Virus record (IMG/VR): IMGVR_UViG_3300029567_000182
Location: 1 to 12,027 of that record
Strand: one strand, 5' to 3'
From: a virus
Taxonomy: Duplodnaviria > Heunggongvirae > Uroviricota > Caudoviricetes
DNA length: 12,027 nucleotides
The notes under the pieces were generated by a model, which ran no database searches, had not been told where the DNA came from, and saw only the letters and a list, made by a program, of their open reading frames with translations. Of the stretch, positions 1,040-12,027 are shown one piece after another. The position numbers and the translations under genes are program-made. How positions within the stretch are numbered: the stretch's first letter is position 1; each line of letters starts with the position of its first letter.

Positions 1040-1175
1040 TTTCTTCTCCTGAACGCGAGGTGTTCCATAGCGTAGGCTTACTGATAACGGAGTGCAATCT
1101 TGCAAACCAGTATTACCCGCTCTTAAGCATCACGTGCTATGTTATTGACACACAAAAGCGTTGAGGAACAGTGAG

Positions 1176-1922
1176 ATGATCGTTTTAGTAACTGGAGCAA
1201 CGGCAGGTTTTGGTGAATGCATTACTCGTCGTTTTATTCAACAAGGGCATAAAGTTATCGCCACTGGCCGTCGCCAGGAGCGGTTGCAGGAGTTAAAAGA
1301 CGAACTGGGAGATAATCTGTATATCGCCCAACTGGACGTTCGCAACCGCGCCGCTATTGAAGAGATGCTGGCATCGCTCCCTGCCGAGTGGTGCAATATT
1401 GATATCCTGGTAAATAATGCCGGCCTGGCGTTGGGCATGGAGCCTGCGCATAAAGCCAGCGTTGAAGACTGGGAAACGATGATTGATACCAACAACAAAG
1501 GCCTGGTATATATGACGCGCGCCGTCTTACCGGGTATGGTTGAACGTAATCATGGTCATATTATTAACATTGGCTCAACGGCAGGTAGCTGGCCGTATGC
1601 CGGTGGTAACGTTTACGGTGCGACGAAAGCGTTTGTTCGTCAGTTTAGCCTGAATCTGCGTACGGATCTGCATGGTACGGCGGTGCGCGTCACCGACATC
1701 GAACCGGGTCTGGTGGGTGGCACCGAGTTTTCCAATGTCCGCTTTAAAGGCGATGACGGTAAAGCGGAAAAAACCTATCAAAATACCGTTGCATTGACGC
1801 CAGAAGATGTCAGCGAAGCCGTCTGGTGGGTGTCAACGCTGCCTGCTCACGTCAATATCAATACCCTGGAAATGATGCCGGTTACCCAAAGCTATGCCGG
1901 ACTGAATGTCCACCGTCAGTAA
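1176..1922 (+). CDS. ydfG: NADP-dependent 3-hydroxy acid dehydrogenase, short-chain dehydrogenase/reductase (SDR) family, 248 aa
   Basis: ORF 1161..1922 in the track starts at a TTG; the in-frame ATG at 1176 (MIVLVTGATAGFGE...) preceded by GAGG is the more likely start. Classical SDR features: TGxxxGxG Rossmann motif (VTGATAGFG), NNAG, and catalytic Y-x3-K (YGATK). Confidence 0.92.
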   Translation: MIVLVTGATAGFGECITRRFIQQGHKVIATGRRQERLQELKDELGDNLYIAQLDVRNRAAIEEMLASLPAEWCNIDILVNNAGLALGMEPAHKASVEDWETMIDTNNKGLVYMTRAVLPGMVERNHGHIINIGSTAGSWPYAGGNVYGATKAFVRQFSLNLRTDLHGTAVRVTDIEPGLVGGTEFSNVRFKGDDGKAEKTYQNTVALTPEDVSEAVWWVSTLPAHVNINTLEMMPVTQSYAGLNVHRQ

Positions 1923-1930
1923 TTTTTATA

Positions 1931-1956
1931 CCCGGCGTAACTGCCGGGTTATTGCT
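1931..1956 (+). terminator. putative intrinsic terminator downstream of ydfG
   Basis: Hairpin cccggc-gtaact-gccggg (1931-1948) immediately after the ydfG stop, followed by a T-rich but interrupted tract (ttattgctt). Confidence 0.45.
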
Positions 1957-2010
1957 TGTCACAAAAAAGTGGTAGACTCATGCAGTTAACTCACTCACAA
2001 GCAAGAACGA

Positions 2011-2697
2011 ATGACCGTCGAAACGCAACTTAATCCCACACAGCCTGTCAATCAGCAGATTTATCGTATTCTTCGTCGCGACATTGTCCATTGCCTGATT
2101 GCACCAGGCACACCGTTGTCGGAAAAAGAAGTTTCTGTTCGTTTCAATGTGTCACGCCAGCCGGTTCGTGAAGCCTTTATTAAACTGGCGGAAAACGGCC
2201 TGATTCAAATTCGTCCGCAGCGTGGCAGCTACGTCAACAAAATTTCCATGGCCCAGGTGCGAAACGGCAGTTTTATCCGTCAGGCCATTGAGTGCGCGGT
2301 GGCGCGTCGGGCGGCGAGCATGATTACCGAAAGCCAGTGCTACCAACTGGAACAAAATCTTCACCAGCAACGCATTGCCATTGAGCGCAAGCAACTGGAT
2401 GATTTTTTTGAACTTGATGACAACTTCCATCAACTCCTGACGCAGATTGCCGACTGTCAACTGGCGTGGGATACCATTGAGAACCTGAAAGCGACCGTTG
2501 ATCGCGTGCGCTATATGAGTTTCGACCATGTTTCTCCACCAGAAATGCTGTTACGCCAGCATCTTGATATTTTCTCTGCCCTGCAAAAACGTGATGGCGA
2601 TGCGGTAGAACGTGCAATGACGCAACATTTGCAGGAAATCAGCGAGTCCGTGCGCCAGATCCGCCAGGAAAACAGCGACTGGTTTAGCGAAGAGTAA
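2011..2697 (+). CDS. ydfH: GntR-family transcriptional regulator (FadR-like subfamily), 228 aa
   Basis: ORF 2011..2697. N-terminal winged-helix region typical of GntR regulators (IYRILRRDI...[24 protein letters not shown]) and an all-helical C-terminal effector domain. Matches E. coli YdfH (also called RspR) as I recall it. Confidence 0.9.
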
Positions 2698-2705
2698 TTC
2701 ATTTA

Positions 2706-2737
2706 CTCTCATCCCATCCGGGATGAGAGGCTTTTCC
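2706..2737 (+). terminator. rho-independent terminator downstream of ydfH
   Basis: Perfect 10-bp stem ctctcatccc / gggatgagag with a 4-nt loop (2706-2729), followed by gcttttcc. Confidence 0.7.
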
Positions 2738-2773
2738 CCCCACCTTACGGCTCATGCATGCATCAAAAAAGAT

Positions 2774-2825
2774 GTGAGCTTGATCAAAAACAAAAAATAT
2801 TTCACTCGACAGGAGTATTTATATT
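2774..2825 (+). promoter_or_regulatory. putative ydfZ promoter with an FNR/CRP-type site (TTGATcaaaAACAA, 2780-2793) about 41.5 bp upstream of the inferred start point; -10-like TATTTA/TATATT at 2816-2825
   Basis: TTGAT-N4-AACAA is a 9/10 match to the FNR consensus TTGAT-N4-ATCAA. It overlaps TGTGA-N6-TCAAA (2774-2789), which is CRP-like. The spacing to the AT-rich -10 candidates fits class II activation. Flanking A-tracts. Assigned by motif only. Confidence 0.5.
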
Positions 2826-2874
2826 GCGCCCGTTACGTGGGCTTCGACTGTAAATCAGAAAGGAGAAAACACCT

Positions 2875-3078
2875 ATGACGACCTACGATCGTAACCGTAA
2901 CGCAATCACCACTGGCAGCCGTGTTATGGTTAGCGGCACCGGTCACACTGGCAAGATCCTGTCGATTGATACTGAAGGTCTGACCGCTGAGCAAATCCGC
3001 CGCGGAAAAACCGTAGTTGTTGAAGGTTGTGAAGAGAAACTGGCACCTCTGGACCTGATTCGTCTCGGCATGAACTAA
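2875..3078 (+). CDS. ydfZ: small conserved protein YdfZ (67 aa; annotated in E. coli as a putative selenium-binding protein)
   Basis: ORF 2875..3078 with a strong Shine-Dalgarno (AGGAGAAAACACCT-ATG). Sequence [32 protein letters not shown]... recognised as YdfZ. Confidence 0.88.
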
Positions 3079-3085
3079 GTGTGTG

Positions 3086-3116
3086 AATGCCGCCGATGGC
3101 GGCATTGCTTTTTTTA
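3086..3116 (+). terminator. rho-independent terminator of ydfZ, overlapping the stop codon of the convergent ydfI
   Basis: Stem aatgccgcc / ggcggcatt (3086-3106) followed by gcttttttt (T7 run, 3109-3115). The ydfI stop codon (TAA, 3114-3116 on the minus strand) sits in the T-tract. Confidence 0.75.
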
Positions 3117-4574
3117 CTTCACGGAATATTTCGCCACGGTCGCTTTCGCGCCATGCGCTAATAAAGACAAGTACGCTTCCGTCACTTTTGCAGTAAACAA
3201 GCTATTGTCTGGCAAATCATCACCAAAGATTGCCTTAATCGCCAGCAATGACTGGACGCGCGCTTTCCCTTCGGCACTACTTTGTACAGCCTTCTGAATA
3301 ACAGGTAACAGTGGGTCACTGATTTCTATCGGATTTCCCTGTTCATCAACACCACCGACATAACGCATCCAACCCGCGACGCCCAGCGCCAGCAGATCGA
3401 ACTTGCTGTCATGCGCCAGATGCCAGCGAACAGAATCCAACATCCGCTGTGGCAATTTCTGGCTACCATCCATCGCAATCTGCCAGGTTCGATGACGTAA
3501 CGCCGGGTTGCTATAGCGTGCAATTAATCGGTTAGCGTAATCTTGCAAATCAACGCCCTGCACTTTCAGCGTCGGCGCTTGTTCCTGCAACATCAAGCCA
3601 TACGCCGCATGACGATAATGTTCATCTTCCATACAGTCATTAATGTGCTGATATCCAGCAAGATAACCCAGATACGCCAGGAATGAATGACTGCCGTTGA
3701 GCATGCGCAACTTCATCTCTTCATAAGGCAGTACATCGCTAACCAGTTCTGCTCCCGCTTTTTCCCATTCCGGACGTCCGGCAACAAAATTATCTTCTAT
3801 TACCCACTGGCGGAAAGGTTCACAGGCAACGCCAGCAGGATCGCGCACACCGGTAAGTTGTTCGATTTTCGCAAGAGTATCCTCTGTCACTGCGGGCACA
3901 ATACGGTCCACCATTGTTGATGGGAAAGTCACGTTATCTTCGATCCATTGTGCCAGTTTTACATCAACGGCTTGCGCGTAGGAAGTGACAACGTCACGCA
4001 TAACATGACCGTTTTCTGGCATGTTGTCACATGACATAACGGTAAATGCGGGAAGTCCTGCCGCTTTACGGCGAGCCAGCGCCTCAACAATCACCCCTGT
4101 TGCTGTTTTCGGCTGGTGGGGATTTTGCACGTCGGCAGCGACCATCGGGTGATCGAGCATTAACTGTCCGGTCGCCGGAGAGTGGAAATACCCTTTTTCG
4201 GTGATTGTCAGAGAGACAATCGCAATTTGCGGTTCACACATCGCAGCCAGCACGGTTTCTAAGCCATCTATTTGTACGTGCAAGGCTTTTTTAACGACGC
4301 CAACGACGCGAGCCGTCCACGCGTCGGCCGACATTTCCGCAACGGTATAAAGATTATCTTGCTGTTGTAAATCGGCAATTTGCTGTTCGCCGCCGATTAA
4401 GTTGACCTCATAATATCCCCAGTCACTGAAATGTTCCGTAGCAAGAATATCGGCATACACGCCCTGATGCGCACGGTGAAATGCACCAAAGCCTAAATGA
4501 ACAATTCTTGGGGCCAGGTTATTACGATCATAAACAGGGAGTGTCGCTTTTGCTGATAACAAATTATTTCCCAT
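3114..4574 (-). CDS. ydfI: mannitol dehydrogenase-family oxidoreductase (mannonate/fructuronate reductase-like), 486 aa
   Basis: ORF 3114..4574. N-terminal dinucleotide-binding region ([16 protein letters not shown]) and overall length typical of long-chain mannitol dehydrogenase / UxuB-like enzymes. Recognised as YdfI. Confidence 0.9.
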
Positions 4575-4620
4575 AACAATTCCTTAAATATAAATATGGC
4601 AAGCTATATGTTTTGTTATA

Positions 4621-4654
4621 TGAATAAAAATCCCCTCTCCGGTAAGAGAAGGGA
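4621..4654 (-). terminator. possible intrinsic terminator downstream of ydfJ (minus strand)
   Basis: Imperfect stem tcccctctc / gagaaggga (4631-4654, one mismatch), followed on the minus strand by TTTTTATTCA. Lies between the ydfJ stop (4663) and the ydfI start (4574). Confidence 0.4.
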
Positions 4655-4662
4655 TTAAGGGT

Positions 4663-5946
4663 TTACAGACTTCTGGAAGGTTGCGCAGCTCTTACAACAC
4701 GCGGTTGATCTTCCGCAGCGTCTTCCAGCGCACTTAAATCACGGTCTTTCACCTCTGGCATTTTCAGCGCAGAGATTAAACCAATCACTGAATATGCCAT
4801 GATCATAATGGCGATCGGATACCAGGATTCCGTCATGGTGCAGAAAATACCCGCCAGGATAGGACCAAAACCGGAAGCGATAAGACCACCAATTTCTTTA
4901 GAAATAGCCATCCGGGTAAAGCGGTTTTTACAGCCGAACATTTCTGCCATGGTAATGTTTTCCAGAGCAAATAATCCCAGCACCGCACAGTTATGAATCA
5001 CAATCAGTGCAACCATAATGGTGCTCGGGGCATAGCTTTTATCTACAATGATAGAAAGCATTGGCCATGCCAGCACAATCGCGGAGGTATTCATAATAAT
5101 ATACGGGATCCGGCGACCAATTTTATCGGATAACCAACCAAGGAACGGAATGGTCATAAAGCCGAGAATCGAACTAATCATCAATGCATCTGTTGGAATT
5201 GCTTTGTTAAACAATAACGTCTGCACTAAATAGCCTGCAAGGAAAGTCTGAATTAACCCGGAGTTACCCGCCTGACCAAAACGCAGCCCTGTTGCCAGCC
5301 AGAAGGATTTGCTCTGGAACATGCTACCAGCAGGTGCAGGTTTTGCTGTGGGTTGGTTGCTGTCATTAACCTTCTCAAAGACCGGGCTTTCTTTCAGATT
5401 CATACGTAACCAGATAGCAAAGACCATCACGACAACGCTCGCCAGGAACGGTATACGCCATCCCCACGCCAGCAGTTCCTCTTTACTGAGAATGAAGAAC
5501 ACAAAGGCCCAGATTGCCGTTGCGCTCAAGGTTCCGCAGTTAGTTCCCATAGCTACAAATGAGGAGATAATTCCGCGCTTACCTTTTGGTGCATATTCCG
5601 CCAGCATCGTACCGGCACCGGAAATTTCCGCACCTGCACCCAACCCCTGAATAATACGCAGCGTCACCAGCAAGATGGGGGCAAAAACACCAATCTGTGC
5701 ATAGGTCGGTAACACACCAATTAAGGTGGTACAGATCCCCATCATGGTGATGGTAATAAAGAGCACTTTTTTACGCCCTATTCTGTCGCCCATTTTGCCG
5801 AAAATAAATGCTCCGACAATACGCGCCACATAACCTGCACCGTAGGTTCCCATTGCCAAAATTAACGCCATTGCCGTTGATGATTCAGGAAAAAATATTT
5901 CATGAAACACTAACGCTGCGCCGAGCGAATATAACTGGAAATCCAT
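4663..5946 (-). pseudogene. ydfJ: 5'-truncated MFS transporter gene (metabolite:H+ symporter family, ShiA/ProP/KgtP-like); remaining ORF 427 codons
   Basis: ORF 4663..5946. The signature G-x-M-x-D-R-x-G-R-K (GKMGDRIGRKK) lies only ~50 residues from the ORF start. The ORF begins MDFQLYSL..., which aligns to the conserved W-Y-D-F block that sits ~35-40 residues into ShiA/ProP, so the N-terminal cytoplasmic segment and the start of TM1 are missing. No Shine-Dalgarno precedes the ATG (upstream is aaaaaatatctatgaatt). Prophage DNA begins immediately upstream. Confidence 0.75.
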
Positions 5947-6164
5947 AATTCATAGATATTTTTTACCATCCTATGGATTTTTGGGCGTTTTCTAAGTTTT
6001 TTCAGATGGTTGTATTTTTTCTAAAAACTCCTGATCTCGATTTTGCTGTTTGTCTGAGGCCTTTTTATGTCCCATATATGCCCCAAGGTGCCCCATGTAA
6101 ATCCAATTCAACTCAAAGCATCCCTGTTCAATATTTTTACAAGGGGCTTGCATATCAGTGTTTT

Positions 6165-6734
6165 TTATTGCGTAACGTCAAACGCTCGGATTGAGCGTAA
6201 ATCCTCCAGATTATTCAGTTCATCCTTCATCTCCCGCTGCCGACGATAAATCTCATTATTGCGATCGACCTGTGCCTGCGCCATTGCTGCTGCCAGTTCT
6301 TCCAGTTCCTGCATTGACAGCGTCACCGGCTGATTATCTGCATCACCCCACGCAAGGGCGGTTCGTGCCGTATCAGATTTTGCGGCCATTACCACCGGAT
6401 AAAGACGGGCCATTGAGTCGGGGCCAGCATTCCAGGTACGACCGTTCCATTCGAACGTGAACGCCTTCGCCTCCTGTTCTGCTCGCCACGCCTCGATTTC
6501 CATCTTTTTGGCATCTTTTGCCGCTGCGATAAGTTCAGGTGTAATGGTGAACGGGGCGATTTCGCCCCATTTGCCGCTCTGTAACTCTTCCCAGATACGC
6601 TGGCCTGTTTCATCCATGTCTTCCGGCGATGCTGTGTAAGGCAAATACTCTTCCACACCGAAAAACAACACCTCACAATCCACAGCGCCATTTTCCAGCC
6701 TGCATATCTTTTTAATATCTTTTATTTTCATCAT
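6165..6734 (-). CDS. putative tail fibre assembly chaperone (189 aa), not of the lambda Tfa type
   Basis: ORF 6165..6734. Its ATG is 3 nt downstream of the stf stop (TAG-CTG-ATG-ATG), implying translational coupling. It occupies the position of tfa in lambda-like phages. The C-terminal half (FTFEWNGRTWNAGPDSMARL...W..DADNQPVTLSMQELEELAAAM...) resembles the conserved pattern of DUF4376-type tail-fibre-assembly proteins as I recall it. Function assigned mainly by context. Confidence 0.6.
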   Translation of the reverse strand: MMKIKDIKKICRLENGAVDCEVLFFGVEEYLPYTASPEDMDETGQRIWEELQSGKWGEIAPFTITPELIAAAKDAKKMEIEAWRAEQEAKAFTFEWNGRTWNAGPDSMARLYPVVMAAKSDTARTALAWGDADNQPVTLSMQELEELAAAMAQAQVDRNNEIYRRQREMKDELNNLEDLRSIRAFDVTQ

Positions 6735-6737
6735 CAG

Positions 6738-9041
6738 CTACCGTACCCGCACAAATAACCCCACAATAGTGTTGTTGTCAGCCATCAGTACACCACCCGA
6801 ACCAGATAACGCTCTGTATGCCCCGGGCAGGAAAAGCGAATATGACCGTCCACTGACATAACAAGTTGGTGTGATTCCTTTTACGCCAGCGCCTGTCGCC
6901 ACCCCTCCCGAGAATTCCACATGCCCCAGCCTTGAACCTGGATAAATCTTTCCTCTCTGCAGAGTTCTGGTCATATCGCTGTCTGATGTACCGTAATAGG
7001 CTGCAAGAATAATATTACCGACTTCCGGGGCCCGGCTATCACTCCCAAGCAGACTGGCAATCCCGCTTCTGTTTATGTAGCCTGAGTCCCAGGGGCGCAG
7101 GGACGGGTTTGTGGGATTTGCATCAAGAACTGTTCGATAGACATCCCCATACTGACCATAAAATGTCAGTAATTTTCTTTTGCCCTGATGTTCTGCCTGA
7201 CTGTATACCCTGTCAGAAATTTTAATTTCGAGCACTCCGGTAAAACCAATATCCGGAATGATGGGATTAAAATCCGGATGTGTTCTCTGCTCCACAAGGT
7301 AGCGCCCTGGCGGCGTCTGCATACACCAGGTTACAAGCTCAGACTGACCATCACTGGCACTAAAATATTTAATCGTCGAAGTCAGTGCTCCAAAACCCAA
7401 TGTCCCCGGTAATGCTCCTCTCCCTTCAGTGCGATCATAAATATTACTTTGTAATGCCACGCTATCTGAGATTTCAAGCACCTGCCGCATATCTTCGGAT
7501 GTGAACTGCGCCAGCAGTGAGCGGGCTTTTGCTGACAACGGAGACAGCGCAATATTCCCTCCGGTATTAAAATACAGAAGGTTATCTGCCCGTACTGTTA
7601 ATTTGCTAATCGCTGTTAAAATATCGCTAAGCGGCTGTTTACCTGCCAGTGCGTTAGTGACCGTCGTCGCAAAGTTTGGGTCATTACCCAGCGCCGCTGC
7701 CAGTTCGTTCAGCGTGTCCAGGGCTTCCGGGGACGAGCCAACCAGCGCAGCGAGCAGTTTGCGGACAAACGCCGCATTCGCCATCTCCAGTCCGACCGCA
7801 TCATCCGGTGGGGTTGGTGTGGTTGGCGTACCGGTGAATGCCGGGCTGTCCAGCGGCGCTTTGGTTTTCGTCTCGTCCATGACGATTTTGACGGCTTTTG
7901 GGGTTGCAGCAAATGCTTCAGATGTGCTGTTGGCAGCACTACTGAGCTGTACTATTCCCTTTTTCGTTGTACTCGCATCCTCAAGCCCCACGGCGGATGC
8001 GATATCCTCTGCCCGCTTTGCCGCTGTCTCGGCTCGGGTTGCCGCGGACTCTGCTGTACTTTTGCTCCGCTCAGCCTCCGCCGCACTGTCTGCCGCCTCT
8101 GTCGCCTTCGTAGCCGCAGCGTTGGCGGACGTCTCTGCAGCAGTTTCTGAATCTGCTGCAGCTGAGGCGTTCTGTGCTGCCGCTGTTTCAGAAGACCTTG
8201 CGTTCGTCTCGGACGTTTTTGCCGCCTTCGCGGAATTTCCTGCCGCCGTTGCCGAGGAGGCTGCACTACTGGCGCTCGAGGCTGCACTCGTTTCTGATGA
8301 TTTTGCCGCCTCTTTTGAAGCCGCCGCATTCCGTGCTGAAGTGGCTGCTTCTGACGCTTTCGTGGTCGCGGTGGATGCAGAAGTGGCTGCTGATTGTTGT
8401 GACGCTGCCGCATTCGTTTCAGACGTTTTCGCGGCACCGGCACTGGTGGCCGCCGCGCTTTTTGAGGACTCTGCTGCGGCAGCACTTTTTGATGCTTCAG
8501 TGGCCTTTGCTGATGCCGTTCCTGCGCTGGAAAAAGCCTCCTGAGCCGACGTCGCGGCCTGTCCGGCTGACGTTCTGGCTGCGCGTGCTGAGTCTGCAGC
8601 ATCAGTCGCATGGGTTGCCGCCTCACGGGCTGATGTGCTGGCATCGCTGGCTGACTTCTTCGCGGCTGCCGTGTTCTGTGCCACTGCGGACGCGTTACGC
8701 GCCACCTCTTCCACCATCAGTTCAAAGCGACGCAGTGCCTCCGGACGGGCATCATCCTCCGTCATGGCACCGAGAAAATCATTCAGCGTACCGGGTTGAG
8801 AATCTTCATACACGGTGATGGTCCCGGCATGTGACGGCGGGAACCCTTCCACCAACAAAATAACGCTGTACTGACCGTACTCAACGTCCATACTGTAACG
8901 CCCGGCTTCATCCGGATTTTCTGAGGCCAGCGTGTTCACCACCACCGTGGTGCTGTTACGTTTTGCTTTCAGCTGGATTGTGCAGTTCTGTACCGGTTTT
9001 CCTGTGCCGTCTTTCAGTACACCTGAAATCTTTACTGCCAT
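6738..9041 (-). CDS. stf: side tail fibre protein, lambda Stf family, mosaic (767 aa from ATG 9041; the ORF track uses GTG 9047)
   Basis: N-terminus MAVKISGVLKDGTGKPVQNCTIQLKAKRNS... matches lambda Stf. Long Ala/Ser/Thr-rich low-complexity segment (residues ~115-350). Conserved tail-fibre motif GIVQLSSAANSTSEAFAATPKAVK...LDSPAFTGTPTTPT (7812-7958). The lambda-like block LNELAAALGNDPNFATTVTNALAGKQP ends at 7632; the C-terminal ~297 residues (6741-7631) are unlike lambda Stf. Confidence 0.9.
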   Translation of the reverse strand: MAVKISGVLKDGTGKPVQNCTIQLKAKRNSTTVVVNTLASENPDEAGRYSMDVEYGQYSVILLVEGFPPSHAGTITVYEDSQPGTLNDFLGAMTEDDARPEALRRFELMVEEVARNASAVAQNTAAAKKSASDASTSAREAATHATDAADSARAARTSAGQAATSAQEAFSSAGTASAKATEASKSAAAAESSKSAAATSAGAAKTSETNAAASQQSAATSASTATTKASEAATSARNAAASKEAAKSSETSAASSASSAASSATAAGNSAKAAKTSETNARSSETAAAQNASAAADSETAAETSANAAATKATEAADSAAEAERSKSTAESAATRAETAAKRAEDIASAVGLEDASTTKKGIVQLSSAANSTSEAFAATPKAVKIVMDETKTKAPLDSPAFTGTPTTPTPPDDAVGLEMANAAFVRKLLAALVGSSPEALDTLNELAAALGNDPNFATTVTNALAGKQPLSDILTAISKLTVRADNLLYFNTGGNIALSPLSAKARSLLAQFTSEDMRQVLEISDSVALQSNIYDRTEGRGALPGTLGFGALTSTIKYFSASDGQSELVTWCMQTPPGRYLVEQRTHPDFNPIIPDIGFTGVLEIKISDRVYSQAEHQGKRKLLTFYGQYGDVYRTVLDANPTNPSLRPWDSGYINRSGIASLLGSDSRAPEVGNIILAAYYGTSDSDMTRTLQRGKIYPGSRLGHVEFSGGVATGAGVKGITPTCYVSGRSYSLFLPGAYRALSGSGGVLMADNNTIVGLFVRVR
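7992..8699 (-). repeat. low-complexity, quasi-repetitive coding DNA (Ala/Ser/Thr-rich shaft region of stf)
   Basis: Recurring GCN/TCN/ACN-rich strings encoding SAA/TSA/AAK-type repeats. Stop-free in several frames on both strands, which explains the overlapping 347-, 230- and 214-aa ORFs in the track. Confidence 0.7.
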
Positions 9042-9048
9042 ATTCACC

Positions 9049-9078
9049 CCACAAAAAAGCCCGCCTGAACCGGCGGGC
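9049..9078 (-). terminator. intrinsic terminator downstream of lom, abutting the stf start
   Basis: 7-bp GC-rich stem gcccgcc / ggcgggc with loop tgaacc (9059-9078), followed on the minus strand by TTTTTTGTGGG (complement of 9049-9058). Confidence 0.65.
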
Positions 9079-9105
9079 TGTCATAACACTGTGTTACCTG
9101 GCTAA

Positions 9106-9705
9106 TCAGAATTTATAACCGACACCCACGATGAAACCGTCAGTGCGCCAGTCACCACTGCCGGAGCCTTCATAAGCAATATCAATGGCCACGGATTCGG
9201 TCGGGTTAAACTGCACGCCTGCCCCCCACGCCAGAGACGTGTTGCTGTGGCGACTGTCATCACTTCCGGTCAGCACATCGTGCTTTTTCCCCTTGTTGTC
9301 AGTTACGCGGATATAATCTCCGGAGAAAGTCGAAACACGGCTGTAAGCCATACCCGCCATCGCATACGCGCTGAACCATTCATTCACGCGCACAGAGGGC
9401 CCCGCCATCACGCTGAACCAGCGGTTACGCACAGAATCTTCATGCCAGCGGGTATCGCTGTAACGGGTCAGCTGGCGATTCTTGTCTCCTGCATAGCTGA
9501 ATGACGTCACCAGCCCCAGTGTGTCCGTAAACTCATAACGGTATTTCACGTTAATCCCGTTCAGATTATCGCTGCCGGGAGCGTTCGTTGAGGCATGGAG
9601 ATACCCCGCGCTCAGCGTGGACTGATGTTCTGCTGCACTCGCTGGCGTAGCAGCGGCGACCTGCCAGACTACTGCGGACAAAATAACAGCACATAATTTA
9701 CGCAT
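9106..9705 (-). CDS. lom: Lom outer-membrane beta-barrel protein (Ail/Lom/OmpX/PagC family), 199 aa
   Basis: ORF 9106..9705 with Shine-Dalgarno GAGAGGTAATT-ATG. Signal-peptide-like N-terminus (MRKLCAVILSAVVWQVAAATPASA), C-terminal ...GVGYKF typical of OM barrels. Near-identical to lambda Lom as I recall it (EHQSTLSAGYLHA.TNAPGSDNLNGINVKYRYEFTDTLG...). Confidence 0.93.
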   Translation of the reverse strand: MRKLCAVILSAVVWQVAAATPASAAEHQSTLSAGYLHASTNAPGSDNLNGINVKYRYEFTDTLGLVTSFSYAGDKNRQLTRYSDTRWHEDSVRNRWFSVMAGPSVRVNEWFSAYAMAGMAYSRVSTFSGDYIRVTDNKGKKHDVLTGSDDSRHSNTSLAWGAGVQFNPTESVAIDIAYEGSGSGDWRTDGFIVGVGYKF

Positions 9706-9772: not shown

Positions 9773-12027
9773 TCAGCTAATCGTGATGCCTGCAGTGGCT
9801 TTCTTCATCACCACAACCAGCAAATCGCTGATACTTGCTGTGGGATACCAGTTATTTACCAGCCACGCTGACACCGAAAACTCCAGCGTCATGTGACCGT
9901 GACCAGCCGGCATATCAATAACACCACTGTAAATCAGCGTATTATCCAGCGCGGTACGGTTATAAATTTCAGCGCCGTTTTTCCGTACGATCAGACGGCA
10001 TGAGGAGTAAATATCAGTATGCTCTTTCTCATGTTTAGCGCCACTGAATGCCACCGCCGGAATAACAATCTGCCGGTCAAACGGCTGATCGTCATAAACC
10101 CTGACGGTAATGGTTCCTGATGGCCACCGCTCCGGTGCACGGGAGTCCCGGGGGAAAGCTTTGCCCACTGTTTTAACGAGATCGCCTTCAATCTGGTTCG
10201 CGGACAGTTTTCCCAGAACCCGACAGTTCTCGTTAATCGTGACGTTGTTGAGCGTCCCTGAGTTCGCATTCACGTTACCGCTGATATCGGCATTTTTCGC
10301 CGTCAGCCGCCCGTCCGGTGTCAGGGAAAATGCCGGAGGATTACCGCCGCTGGTAATGGTCGGAGCCGTCAGGCGTTTCAGGAACACGTCGTTCATGAAT
10401 ATCTGATCGCCCTGACCAACAAACATTGGTCTTGTGTTGCCATTAGACGGATCAATAAACGCGATACGGTTAGCGGCAACCAGGAACTGGCTCAGTTTGC
10501 CTTCCTCCGTGTCCTCCATGCTGAGGCCAAGCCCCGCGACATAATGCTTACCGTCTTCGGTCTGCTCAATTTTGACGCCCCACATGGCATTCCATTTATC
10601 GTTGGCGTCTTTCCACTCTTTCGAAAACTGATCCAGTCTGCTGGCGTTATCTTCCGTCAGGTCGACTTTTTCCAGCAGCTCCTTGCCGAGATGGGATTCG
10701 GTTATCTTGCCTTTGAAAAAATCCAGGTAACCTTCCGCATCATCGCTCGCCCGACCGACGGCCTCCACGAATGCCGATTTGCCAACGGTGTTCACACTGC
10801 GGATATAAAAGTAATAATCATGGCCCGGTTTGATATTGATACTGGCGGCTATCCAGTACAGCCCCGCGCCAAGGTAGCGGGCTGTGGTTTCAACCTGCCT
10901 GATATCGGTAATCCGCGTTTCCGAGAACCAGAACTCAAACTGTACCGTCGGATCATAAACCTCAAGATGCGGCGTGGCAGTTATCTGAAAATAGCCCGGC
11001 GTCAGCTCAATCCGCGACGGTGCTACCGGTGCGGCAATCCTGAACGATACCGACGCCGGATCGCCCTGCTGTCCCCACGCATTTACCGCCCGGACTGTCA
11101 GCGTGTACCGTCCCAGCGCCAGTTGCGTGAAGCGGTATGTGGTTTCCGTCGTCCGGGCCGTGCTGACCAGCCGCTCACTGCCGTCATCCGCTGCCACGGT
11201 CAGGCGAAGCAGGAAGCTCACGCCCTTCACCACCTTCGGCGTGTCCCATCGCGCCAGCACCTGATATTCCCCGCTGTCTGCAGTGACTTCGGCGGTCAGA
11301 TGCTGCACTGCTGGCGGCGTGACACCATTCACCGTGCCGCTCTGGTCGCCGTCAAAGTGCGCCCCGTTATCCACGATGGCCTCTTTTTCCGGTACATGCT
11401 GCACGGCGGTGATGGCATACGTGCCGTCGTCGTTCTCACGAATACTCACGCAGCGGAACAGGCGCTGGCGCAGCGTCGGCAGCTTCAGCCCCCACACGCT
11501 GTATTCAGCAACACCGTCAGGAACACGGCTCACTTTCACCTTCACGCCGTCGGTGACGGACTGAACCTCCACGCTGACCGGACTCCCCTGCCCGTCAACC
11601 AGGCTTATCAGCGTGGTGCCGGAAGATGGCAGCGTGATTTCACGGTCGAGCGTCAGCGTCCGGGTCTGGCTGTTTACCGCCAGCACGCGCCCGCCGATGC
11701 TGATACCGGCATAGTCATCATCACAGATTTCAATGACATCGCCCGGCACATGGCGAAGCCCTTCTGCGCCCACGCTGAAGTCCACGGTCTGCGTTTCCAG
11801 CAGTTCTGTTTTAATCAGCCACAGCCCGGCGCGGTGTGCCTGCCCCCGGCTGGTACAGCCAAAGGCATCCATCTTCGTGACGTTACGACCGTAACGGGCA
11901 ATGGCCTGCGTATCCTCCACAAGCTCTGTCGCCGTCTCCCAGCCGTTGTTCGGGTCAATCCAGTTCACCTCAACGGCATTATGGCGGTCTTTCAGGGCGC
12001 TGAAGCTGTAGCGGAACGGCGCGCCAT
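9773..12027 (-). CDS. J: tail tip / host specificity protein J (central tail fibre), C-terminal ~750 codons; the 5' end of the gene is beyond the window end
   Basis: The track ORF 9773..11968 starts at an internal Met. The frame stays open to 12027 and reads ...[47 protein letters not shown]..., recognised as lambda J. Contains the fibronectin-III-like and C-terminal receptor-binding region. Confidence 0.93.

Follow-up and report, generated by a model that had tools for sequence, protein, structure and literature searches.

Among the systems closest to the gene described here are two groups of proteins. The first is represented by lambda Tfa, Mu Tfa (TfaMu, PDB 5YVQ) and P2 G (Caudo_TAP, PF02413); its members occupy the slot after the side tail fibre gene stf and combine a tip-binding N-terminal domain with an oligomerising C-terminal domain. 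This scheme has been structurally established for Mu Tfa and for Pam3 gp25, in which fibre-tip binding falls to a variable β-domain at the N-terminus and oligomerisation to a conserved helical domain at the C-terminus (PMC9608196). The second group is defined by the domain DUF4376. In Alteromonas phage V22, production of a functional gp26 fibre depends on gp27 (195 aa, with DUF4376 at residues 92–184), which is no longer found in the mature complex (PMC7289586), and the DUF4376 gene downstream of the H-fibre gene of Campylobacter CJIE1 is needed for fibre function (PMC7882524). AlphaFold-Multimer models of the A5 and V22 systems have a trimeric helical core, with three chaperone β-strands extending the fibre-head sheet; A5 fibres fold without their DUF4376 chaperone gp9, so that dependence on the chaperone is not universal (PMC10579305). 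[quoted passage not shown] Prefoldin subunits (1FXK, 6NR8) are also among the closest known systems.

The window, by which is meant the whole 12,027-nt stretch of DNA analysed, consists of E. coli chromosome (ydfG, ydfH, ydfZ, ydfI and a truncated ydfJ; 1161–5946) joined to the right end of a lambdoid prophage (Table 1). On the minus strand the prophage genes follow one another as J (9773–11968, cut by the window end), lom (9106–9705), stf and then an ORF of 189 aa. This order matches J-lom-stf-tfa of lambda, and the first-pass annotation was right in placing the gene in the tfa slot. It was right, too, in separating the stf stop from the downstream start by 3 nt: the minus strand reads TAG (the stf stop, 6740–6738), CTG (6737–6735), ATG ATG (6734–6729), the second ATG (6731) being the database-annotated start. 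A strong terminator-like hairpin (9058–9079, minus strand; 8 pairs, 7 of them G-C, then TTTTTTGTGGG) lies between lom and stf. Beyond the 3' end of the 189-aa gene, the minus strand showed neither promoter-like nor terminator-like sites. The stf shaft is additionally covered, within 7500–8820, by alternative-frame ORFs of 347 aa (7501–8544, plus strand), 230 aa (7952–8644, minus strand) and 214 aa (8174–8818, plus strand); lying over Ala/Ser/Thr-rich, low-complexity sequence, they look like by-products of composition bias and not genes.

Table 1. Features at the prophage end of the 12,027-nt window (AF2, AlphaFold2)
Feature	Position	Strand	Basis or remark
ydfJ without its N-terminus, chromosomal gene interrupted by the prophage	4663..5946	-	RefSeq 'incomplete; missing N-terminus' in matching strain
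DinI-family gene remnant, ~90 bp, between the chaperone gene and ydfJ	about 6006-6095	+	pseudogene in strain 120899
Probable DUF4376-type tail-fibre assembly chaperone gene, 189 aa	6165..6734	-	ORF list and DNA; stop codon 6165-6167
C-module, residues 66-189, putative generic oligomerising/assembly module	6168..6539	-	AF2; Pfam DUF4376 envelope 71-177
N-module, residues 1-62, putative fibre-tip adaptor	6549..6734	-	AF2 and alignment
stf TAG (6738-6740) and 3-nt CTG spacer (6735-6737) before the chaperone ATG	6735..6740	-	tight coupling-type junction
stf, 769-aa side tail fibre, presumed client	6738..9047	-	PF08400 N-terminal domain (residues 3-136), Ala/Ser-rich shaft, C-terminal tip
Stf extreme C-terminus, residues 742-769, GAYRALSG...GLFVRVR, putative docking region	6741..6824	-	motif shared by all fibres identified ahead of N-module chaperones

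Since ydfJ lacks its N-terminus, the prophage is considered to have inserted in this gene, and the junction between prophage and chromosome therefore lies between 5947 and about 6005. We take ydfJ to be also the insertion site of Qin in K-12. In strain 120899, which is 99.1% identical over the stretch, the DinI-family gene is annotated as a pseudogene with its C-terminus missing, and the upstream stf is likewise a pseudogene; several O157, O26, O103 and O111 strains among those listed carry a DinI-like family gene at the same position, adjoining ydfJ. The remnant is outside the chaperone system and helps to define the prophage end. It also qualifies the earlier description of the 189-aa gene as the last before that end: this holds for intact genes, but a dinI-family remnant is present within the 218 bp before ydfJ.

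The 189-aa ORF is a real gene and not a chance ORF, because it has 1791 homologues at E ≤ 1e-3, is represented by a cluster of 145 members that are 100% identical over 188 aa (beginning at the second Met), and has a dN/dS of 0.18 among 57 non-redundant relatives. A scan of genome contigs returned six loci only, all near-identical and from Shigella or E. coli. In a defective prophage such a gene might nevertheless be a decaying relic without current function, and its surroundings could be read in this way: the adjacent dinI-family gene is a remnant, ydfJ is disrupted, stf has become a pseudogene in strain 120899, and several related loci (L077–L081) carry copies that are truncated or interrupted by insertion sequences. 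In the window itself, however, both stf and the downstream ORF are intact and the coupling junction is preserved. The 145 identical database members and the dN/dS value also speak against decay, as does the comparison with the closest relative, L012 (pN 0.034, pS 0.181), and we consider a functionless relic very unlikely.

Over its full length the 189-aa protein matches phrog_1141 (category 'tail', E 7e-85), and Pfam places DUF4376 (PF14301) at residues 71–177 (57.8 bits, with a gathering threshold of 25; E 1.7e-15), in keeping with the RefSeq name 'DUF4376 domain-containing protein', given next to a 'prophage tail fiber N-terminal domain-containing protein'. Residues 1–65 alone match two families, phrog_1141 (E 7e-23) and phrog_1795 (E 7e-6). 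NCBIfam assigned the 189-aa protein to no family, and sequence searches of the PDB with the protein, its family profile and the Stf tip returned nothing. The possibility of an intramolecular chaperone domain of the autoproteolytic Peptidase_S74 type was rejected: the gene is a separate ORF after the TAG stop, and Peptidase_S74 matched neither Stf nor the 189-aa protein.

That this is not the lambda-type Tfa sequence, as first noted from the letters alone, is borne out by each comparison made. Caudo_TAP gave no Pfam match at E ≤ 0.1, whereas lambda Tfa itself scores 147.6 bits; BLASTP against lambda Tfa found nothing (E 0.39); and hhalign, with small alignments, gave probabilities of only 0.3% for DUF4376 as a diverged Caudo_TAP C-terminus and 0.2% for the N-terminal part as a diverged Caudo_TAP_N (PF28596). 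Caudo_TAP proteins thus differ from the 189-aa protein in having no sequence or profile similarity to it in either half. DUF4376 has been stated to be homologous to the TfaMu C-terminus (PMC7882524), a relationship that hhalign with small alignments did not reproduce. The view that the C-terminal part is tail-fibre-assembly-like therefore needs dividing: a chaperone-type domain is indeed present, but it is DUF4376 and not Tfa or Caudo_TAP sequence, and the C-terminal half appears to resemble Tfa in role and not in sequence.

The position of the gene is conserved along with its sequence. Among isolated phages, relatives occur in Rac-SA53, SerU-LTIIb and phiP27 (L57), at 75–77% identity, in the Vequintavirinae phage Av-05 (43%) and as ORF-191 of the P-Eib phages (37–39%), and in each of these the homologue is directly 3' of a fibre gene. 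Of the 70 IMG/VR loci in which both ORFs could be called, nearly all have a fibre ORF of 350–1100 aa whose end lies -4 to +14 nt from the chaperone start. The same layout, fibre then chaperone, is found in phiP27, Rac-SA53, Av-05, P-EibA and PhiR5_2. A co-oriented position immediately 3' of a fibre gene is shared by about 60 related loci and by distantly related DUF4376 proteins from a range of phages, P2-like and Mu-like ones included.

AlphaFold2 given 26 homologues predicts two modules (pLDDT 94.7); this alignment-based model was used in place of a single-sequence one, dropped because its pLDDT was 60.5, with the N-terminus below 50. In the N-module, strands are predicted at residues 4–12, 18–24 and 31–35, and a helix at 42–53. 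The C-module is predicted to comprise helix 66–89, hairpin 92–103, helix 105–120, hairpin 126–140 and helix 141–174, so that residues 66–183 would form a long helical hairpin bearing two β-hairpins. A helical body with central β-hairpins, following N-terminal β-strands, is also the arrangement of the V22 gp27 type. Compared by published description, V22 gp27 and A5 gp9 share with the 189-aa protein a helical body with one or more β-hairpins and N-terminal β-strands, which in the published models extend the fibre-head sheet; gp27 is also of similar size (195 aa as against 189), has DUF4376 in its C-terminal half, too, and is encoded directly 3' of its fibre gene. They differ in host, in phage type (here a lambdoid siphovirus prophage) and in client fibre. 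A Foldseek search of the model against the PDB returned nothing at E ≤ 0.001.

Family membership, conserved synteny, predicted architecture and the published experiments on DUF4376 relatives all favour the initial suggestion that this is probably the cognate fibre chaperone, and they support its assignment, by analogy, as an ordinary DUF4376-class fibre chaperone, its function being one that we infer from these sources. In more specific terms, our preferred reading, to which we would give a probability of about 0.78, is that the product of the gene is an intermolecular chaperone of two modules, serving the Stf side tail fibre, whose own gene lies immediately upstream.

The N-terminal part had been set down initially as without assignable function, and no Pfam or NCBIfam model covers residues 1–70. 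The evidence now points the other way: residues 1–62 form a conserved domain of their own, which co-varies with the fibre tip and is found again on other chaperones of fibre assembly. In an exhaustive search of representatives, most DUF4376 proteins matched residues ~60–187 only and had unrelated N-termini, while some 20 relatives, at 25–45% identity, matched over the full length, N-module included. These share the motif G-x-I-D-C-E-V-x-F...L-P-[YF]-T-A-x-x-x-D...G-x-x-[IL]-[WFY]...G-x-[WYF]-G-x-I-x-P, and the conserved framework comprises G16, D19, C20, P32-Y33-T34-A35, D39, G44, W48, G54 and G57. Both halves of the protein are under purifying selection, the dN/dS within the N-module being 0.21 for residues 1–42 and 0.06 for residues 43–62.

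An HMM of the N-module (66 positions) matched 10 of 10 proteins of the N-module kind and none of four chaperones with other N-termini. At 60–71 bits it detected the 142-aa gp47 of Pseudomonas phage E217, two Aeromonas proteins, from 85AhydR10PP and AhyVDH1, of 132 and 136 aa, and a Vibrio VPs20 protein of 148 aa annotated 'tail assembly chaperone', so that the family could be traced through enterobacterial, Pseudomonas, Aeromonas and Vibrio phages. Like the 189-aa protein, all four, together with the Pbunavirus homologues of gp47, carry the N-module and are encoded directly 3' of fibre genes whose products end G-x-W...F-x-R-h. They differ in having no DUF4376, their C-parts being short Tfa-like helices of Caudo_TAP or Phage_tail_APC type: the C-part of the AhyVDH1 protein is Caudo_TAP (E 1.3e-8) and that of the VPs20 protein is Phage_tail_APC (E 3.8e-14). 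PHROGs agrees independently: the E217, Aeromonas and VPs20 proteins match phrog_1141 (E 1e-12 to 9e-14), and for the C-parts the matching families are of 'tail fiber assembly' type. A search of the literature found no functional study of these proteins. The reverse combination also exists in P0171, from a P2-like prophage, where a lambda-Tfa N-domain (47% identity over residues 1–117, E 8e-40) is joined to DUF4376 and the upstream fibre tip is of the lambda-Stf/P2-H type. P0171 and the AhyVDH1 protein are natural chimeras that link the present family with Caudo_TAP.

Two loci are worth recording in their own right. E217 gp47 (L091, 4001–4429), annotated as hypothetical, combines an N-module with a Tfa-like C-terminus and follows directly on gp46, the tail fibre gene; to judge from its sequence it is likely to be a fibre chaperone of the therapeutic Pbunavirus group, so far without annotation as such, and 263 Pseudomonas phage records give the same weak tblastn match. 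In a metagenomic phage contig (L093), an 839-aa fibre gene lies between two DUF4376 genes, one of 124 aa upstream (43–417) and one of 199 aa and N-module type downstream (3001–3600), a layout which suggests serial fibre/chaperone cassettes. At one further locus, L095, no upstream fibre was called.

The relation between chaperone and fibre tip was examined in 57 non-redundant fibre/chaperone pairs of E. coli type, using the last 120 aa of each fibre. Variation in the chaperone is concentrated at residues 1–12, 25–31 and 36–42, the variable patches of the N-module, and at residues 171–189. Fibre identity is correlated with chaperone identity over residues 1–12, 13–24 and 25–42 (Spearman 0.66, 0.63 and 0.55, respectively) but not over residues 91–189 (-0.06 to 0.08); for whole halves, in 59 pairs, the values are 0.66 for residues 1–62 and 0.19 for residues 66–189. 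Individual loci behave in the same way. The C-module encoded in the window is 85–90% identical to C-modules from loci whose fibre tips are only 33–38% identical, and for Av-05 the identity is 60% in the N-module against 33% in the C-module. Chaperones of the L014 and L002 types, which belong to other tip clusters, are 61–65% identical in the N-module and 79–90% in the C-module. As co-variation is seen for the N-module and not for the DUF4376 half beyond residue 90, the N-module appears to move together with the fibre tip, and the DUF4376 body to be swapped without such constraint. With increasing distance from the fibre gene the correlation declines steadily, and the drop comes inside the module, after residue ~42, and not at the domain boundary; because the coding region of the N-module adjoins the 3' end of the fibre gene, the co-variation could in part reflect recombination linkage.

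Five loci (L077–L081) that match residues 62–187 only had been considered as natural N-module swaps and were left out of the evidence, since the two inspected, L077 and L081, proved to be decayed or IS-interrupted remnants. There, 3' fragments of DUF4376 genes adjoin a Caudo_TAP-type tfa or are cut by an IS3-family element (L077, 2582–3127 and 3528–3884; L081, 2236–3449); they are remnants of earlier fibre-module replacements.

The fibres themselves share a feature at their extreme C-terminus. All of those preceding N-module chaperones (59 of 59 and a further 10 of 10) end in G-x-[WYF], 12–34 residues, and then [LIVFAM]-[FWCA]-x-R-h. The motif is absent from all four fibres paired with other N-modules, and its background among 474 ORFs was two, both of them fibre remnants. 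It is post hoc, having been written after inspection and then loosened: the first regular expression missed 23 of the 59 E. coli loci, whose tips are of G-R-Y or G-S-Y type. When an HMM was built from the C-terminal 200 aa of fibre tips of E. coli type, it detected the tips of Av-05 (E 4e-43), PhiR5_2 (7e-8) and, weakly, P-EibA (0.02), and gave no match to those of E217, Aeromonas and L086 (E > 0.2), so that the suggested long-range link between tips is carried by the short motif.

Most likely, then, on the pattern of conservation and co-variation, residues 1–62 are a small adaptor domain that would recognise the tip of its own fibre. A broader proposal is that they represent an undescribed, portable fibre-tip adaptor, attached to at least three unrelated assembly modules (DUF4376, the Caudo_TAP C-part and Phage_tail_APC) and strictly paired with one class of tip (G-x-[WYF]...F-x-R-h) in phages of E. 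coli, Pseudomonas, Aeromonas and Vibrio; we judge the chances of this to be about even.

The position of the gene at the end of a prophage had also raised the idea of an additional, accessory role. The N-terminal third might then be a separate, moron-like function, for example in superinfection exclusion or directed at the host, fused to a minimal DUF4376 chaperone. Besides the position, the lack of a Pfam or NCBIfam model for this region fits such an idea, and in the P-Eib prophages cargo genes (eibA and others) come directly after the homologous ORF-191. Yet the N-module was found only on proteins encoded directly 3' of fibre genes, including those of lytic phages in which the gene is in the tail module (Av-05, E217, VPs20) and, in Av-05, in mid-genome; it is fused to three different assembly modules; and it co-varies with the fibre tip. 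PADLOC returned no match (0 families at E ≤ 1), and the cargo genes of the relatives are separate downstream ORFs. The accessory role thus finds no support, and a fusion of this kind seems to us scarcely credible. Since the N-module tracks the fibre tip and recurs on other chaperones, it is better regarded as part of how the chaperone works than as an activity of its own. The P-EibA locus (L010, 3918–5096 and downstream), with immunoglobulin-binding eibA and further cargo genes directly after ORF-191, does indicate that the slot following the chaperone is used for cargo elsewhere; in the window that slot holds only the dinI remnant.

For the two-module chaperone the following course of events is proposed. 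The protein would be translated immediately after Stf from the same message, by way of the stop-CTG-ATG junction. Its N-module (residues 1–62) would dock with nascent Stf chains at their C-terminal tip, where its strands would probably extend a β-sheet, and the DUF4376 module (residues 66–183) would self-associate, most likely as a trimer. Three Stf C-termini would thereby be brought into register, and trimerisation would begin at the tip and proceed towards the N-terminus. Binding to Stf, the oligomeric state, the need for the chaperone in fibre folding, and its leaving or staying on the mature fibre are all argued by analogy with relatives, and the mechanism as a whole is transferred from proteins that share only the DUF4376 module.

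Whether such a protein leaves the fibre bears on a different reading, that it belongs to the fibre structure itself, as a distal cap or adhesin kept on the Stf tip with a share in receptor binding, as in Mu Tfa or T2-type gp38, for which help in assembly would be only part of the job. Mu Tfa stays bound to its fibre tip (summarised in PMC7289586 and PMC9608196), and a transient 'cap' role has been proposed by the Alteromonas authors (PMC10579305). By contrast V22 gp27, the only DUF4376 member tested in this respect, does not co-elute with the mature fibre even at high salt (PMC7289586). GenBank and the PHROGs family label call the protein a 'tail fiber protein', but these are automatic annotations, and in the predicted fold, a helical hairpin, no domain resembles a receptor-binding one. 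The C-terminal tail (residues 171–189; 6168–6224, minus strand; mean pairwise identity 0.50, dN/dS 0.27) is hypervariable, more so than any other part of the protein, but varies independently of the fibre tip (Spearman 0.07). It would suit a surface exposed to a partner other than the fibre; it could equally be simply unconstrained. E217 gp47, with the same N-module, is never mentioned (0 occurrences) in the E217 cryo-EM paper, in which the distal fibre is unresolved. On balance a structural cap is unlikely, and we retain the intermolecular chaperone as the preferred reading.

The modular logic set out here has already been described for Mu Tfa and Pam3 gp25, and no new biological question is opened by finding it again. 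What is new is the assignment of residues 1–62 as a conserved, fibre-tip-linked adaptor that phages appear to attach to other assembly modules as well. Thousands of E. coli prophage genes now called 'DUF4376 domain-containing protein', 'tail fiber protein' or 'hypothetical' become readable as two-module fibre-assembly chaperones. Without co-expression of the right chaperone, recombinant side tail fibres, retargeted pyocins and host-range swaps usually fail, and the finding that ~60 residues at the N-terminus go with the tip, the DUF4376 body being interchangeable, would show which gene, or which part of it, must move with a fibre tip. If the adaptor alone sets which tip is matured, the pairing of chaperone and fibre would be predictable from sequence, and retargeting might be achieved by swapping ~60 residues.
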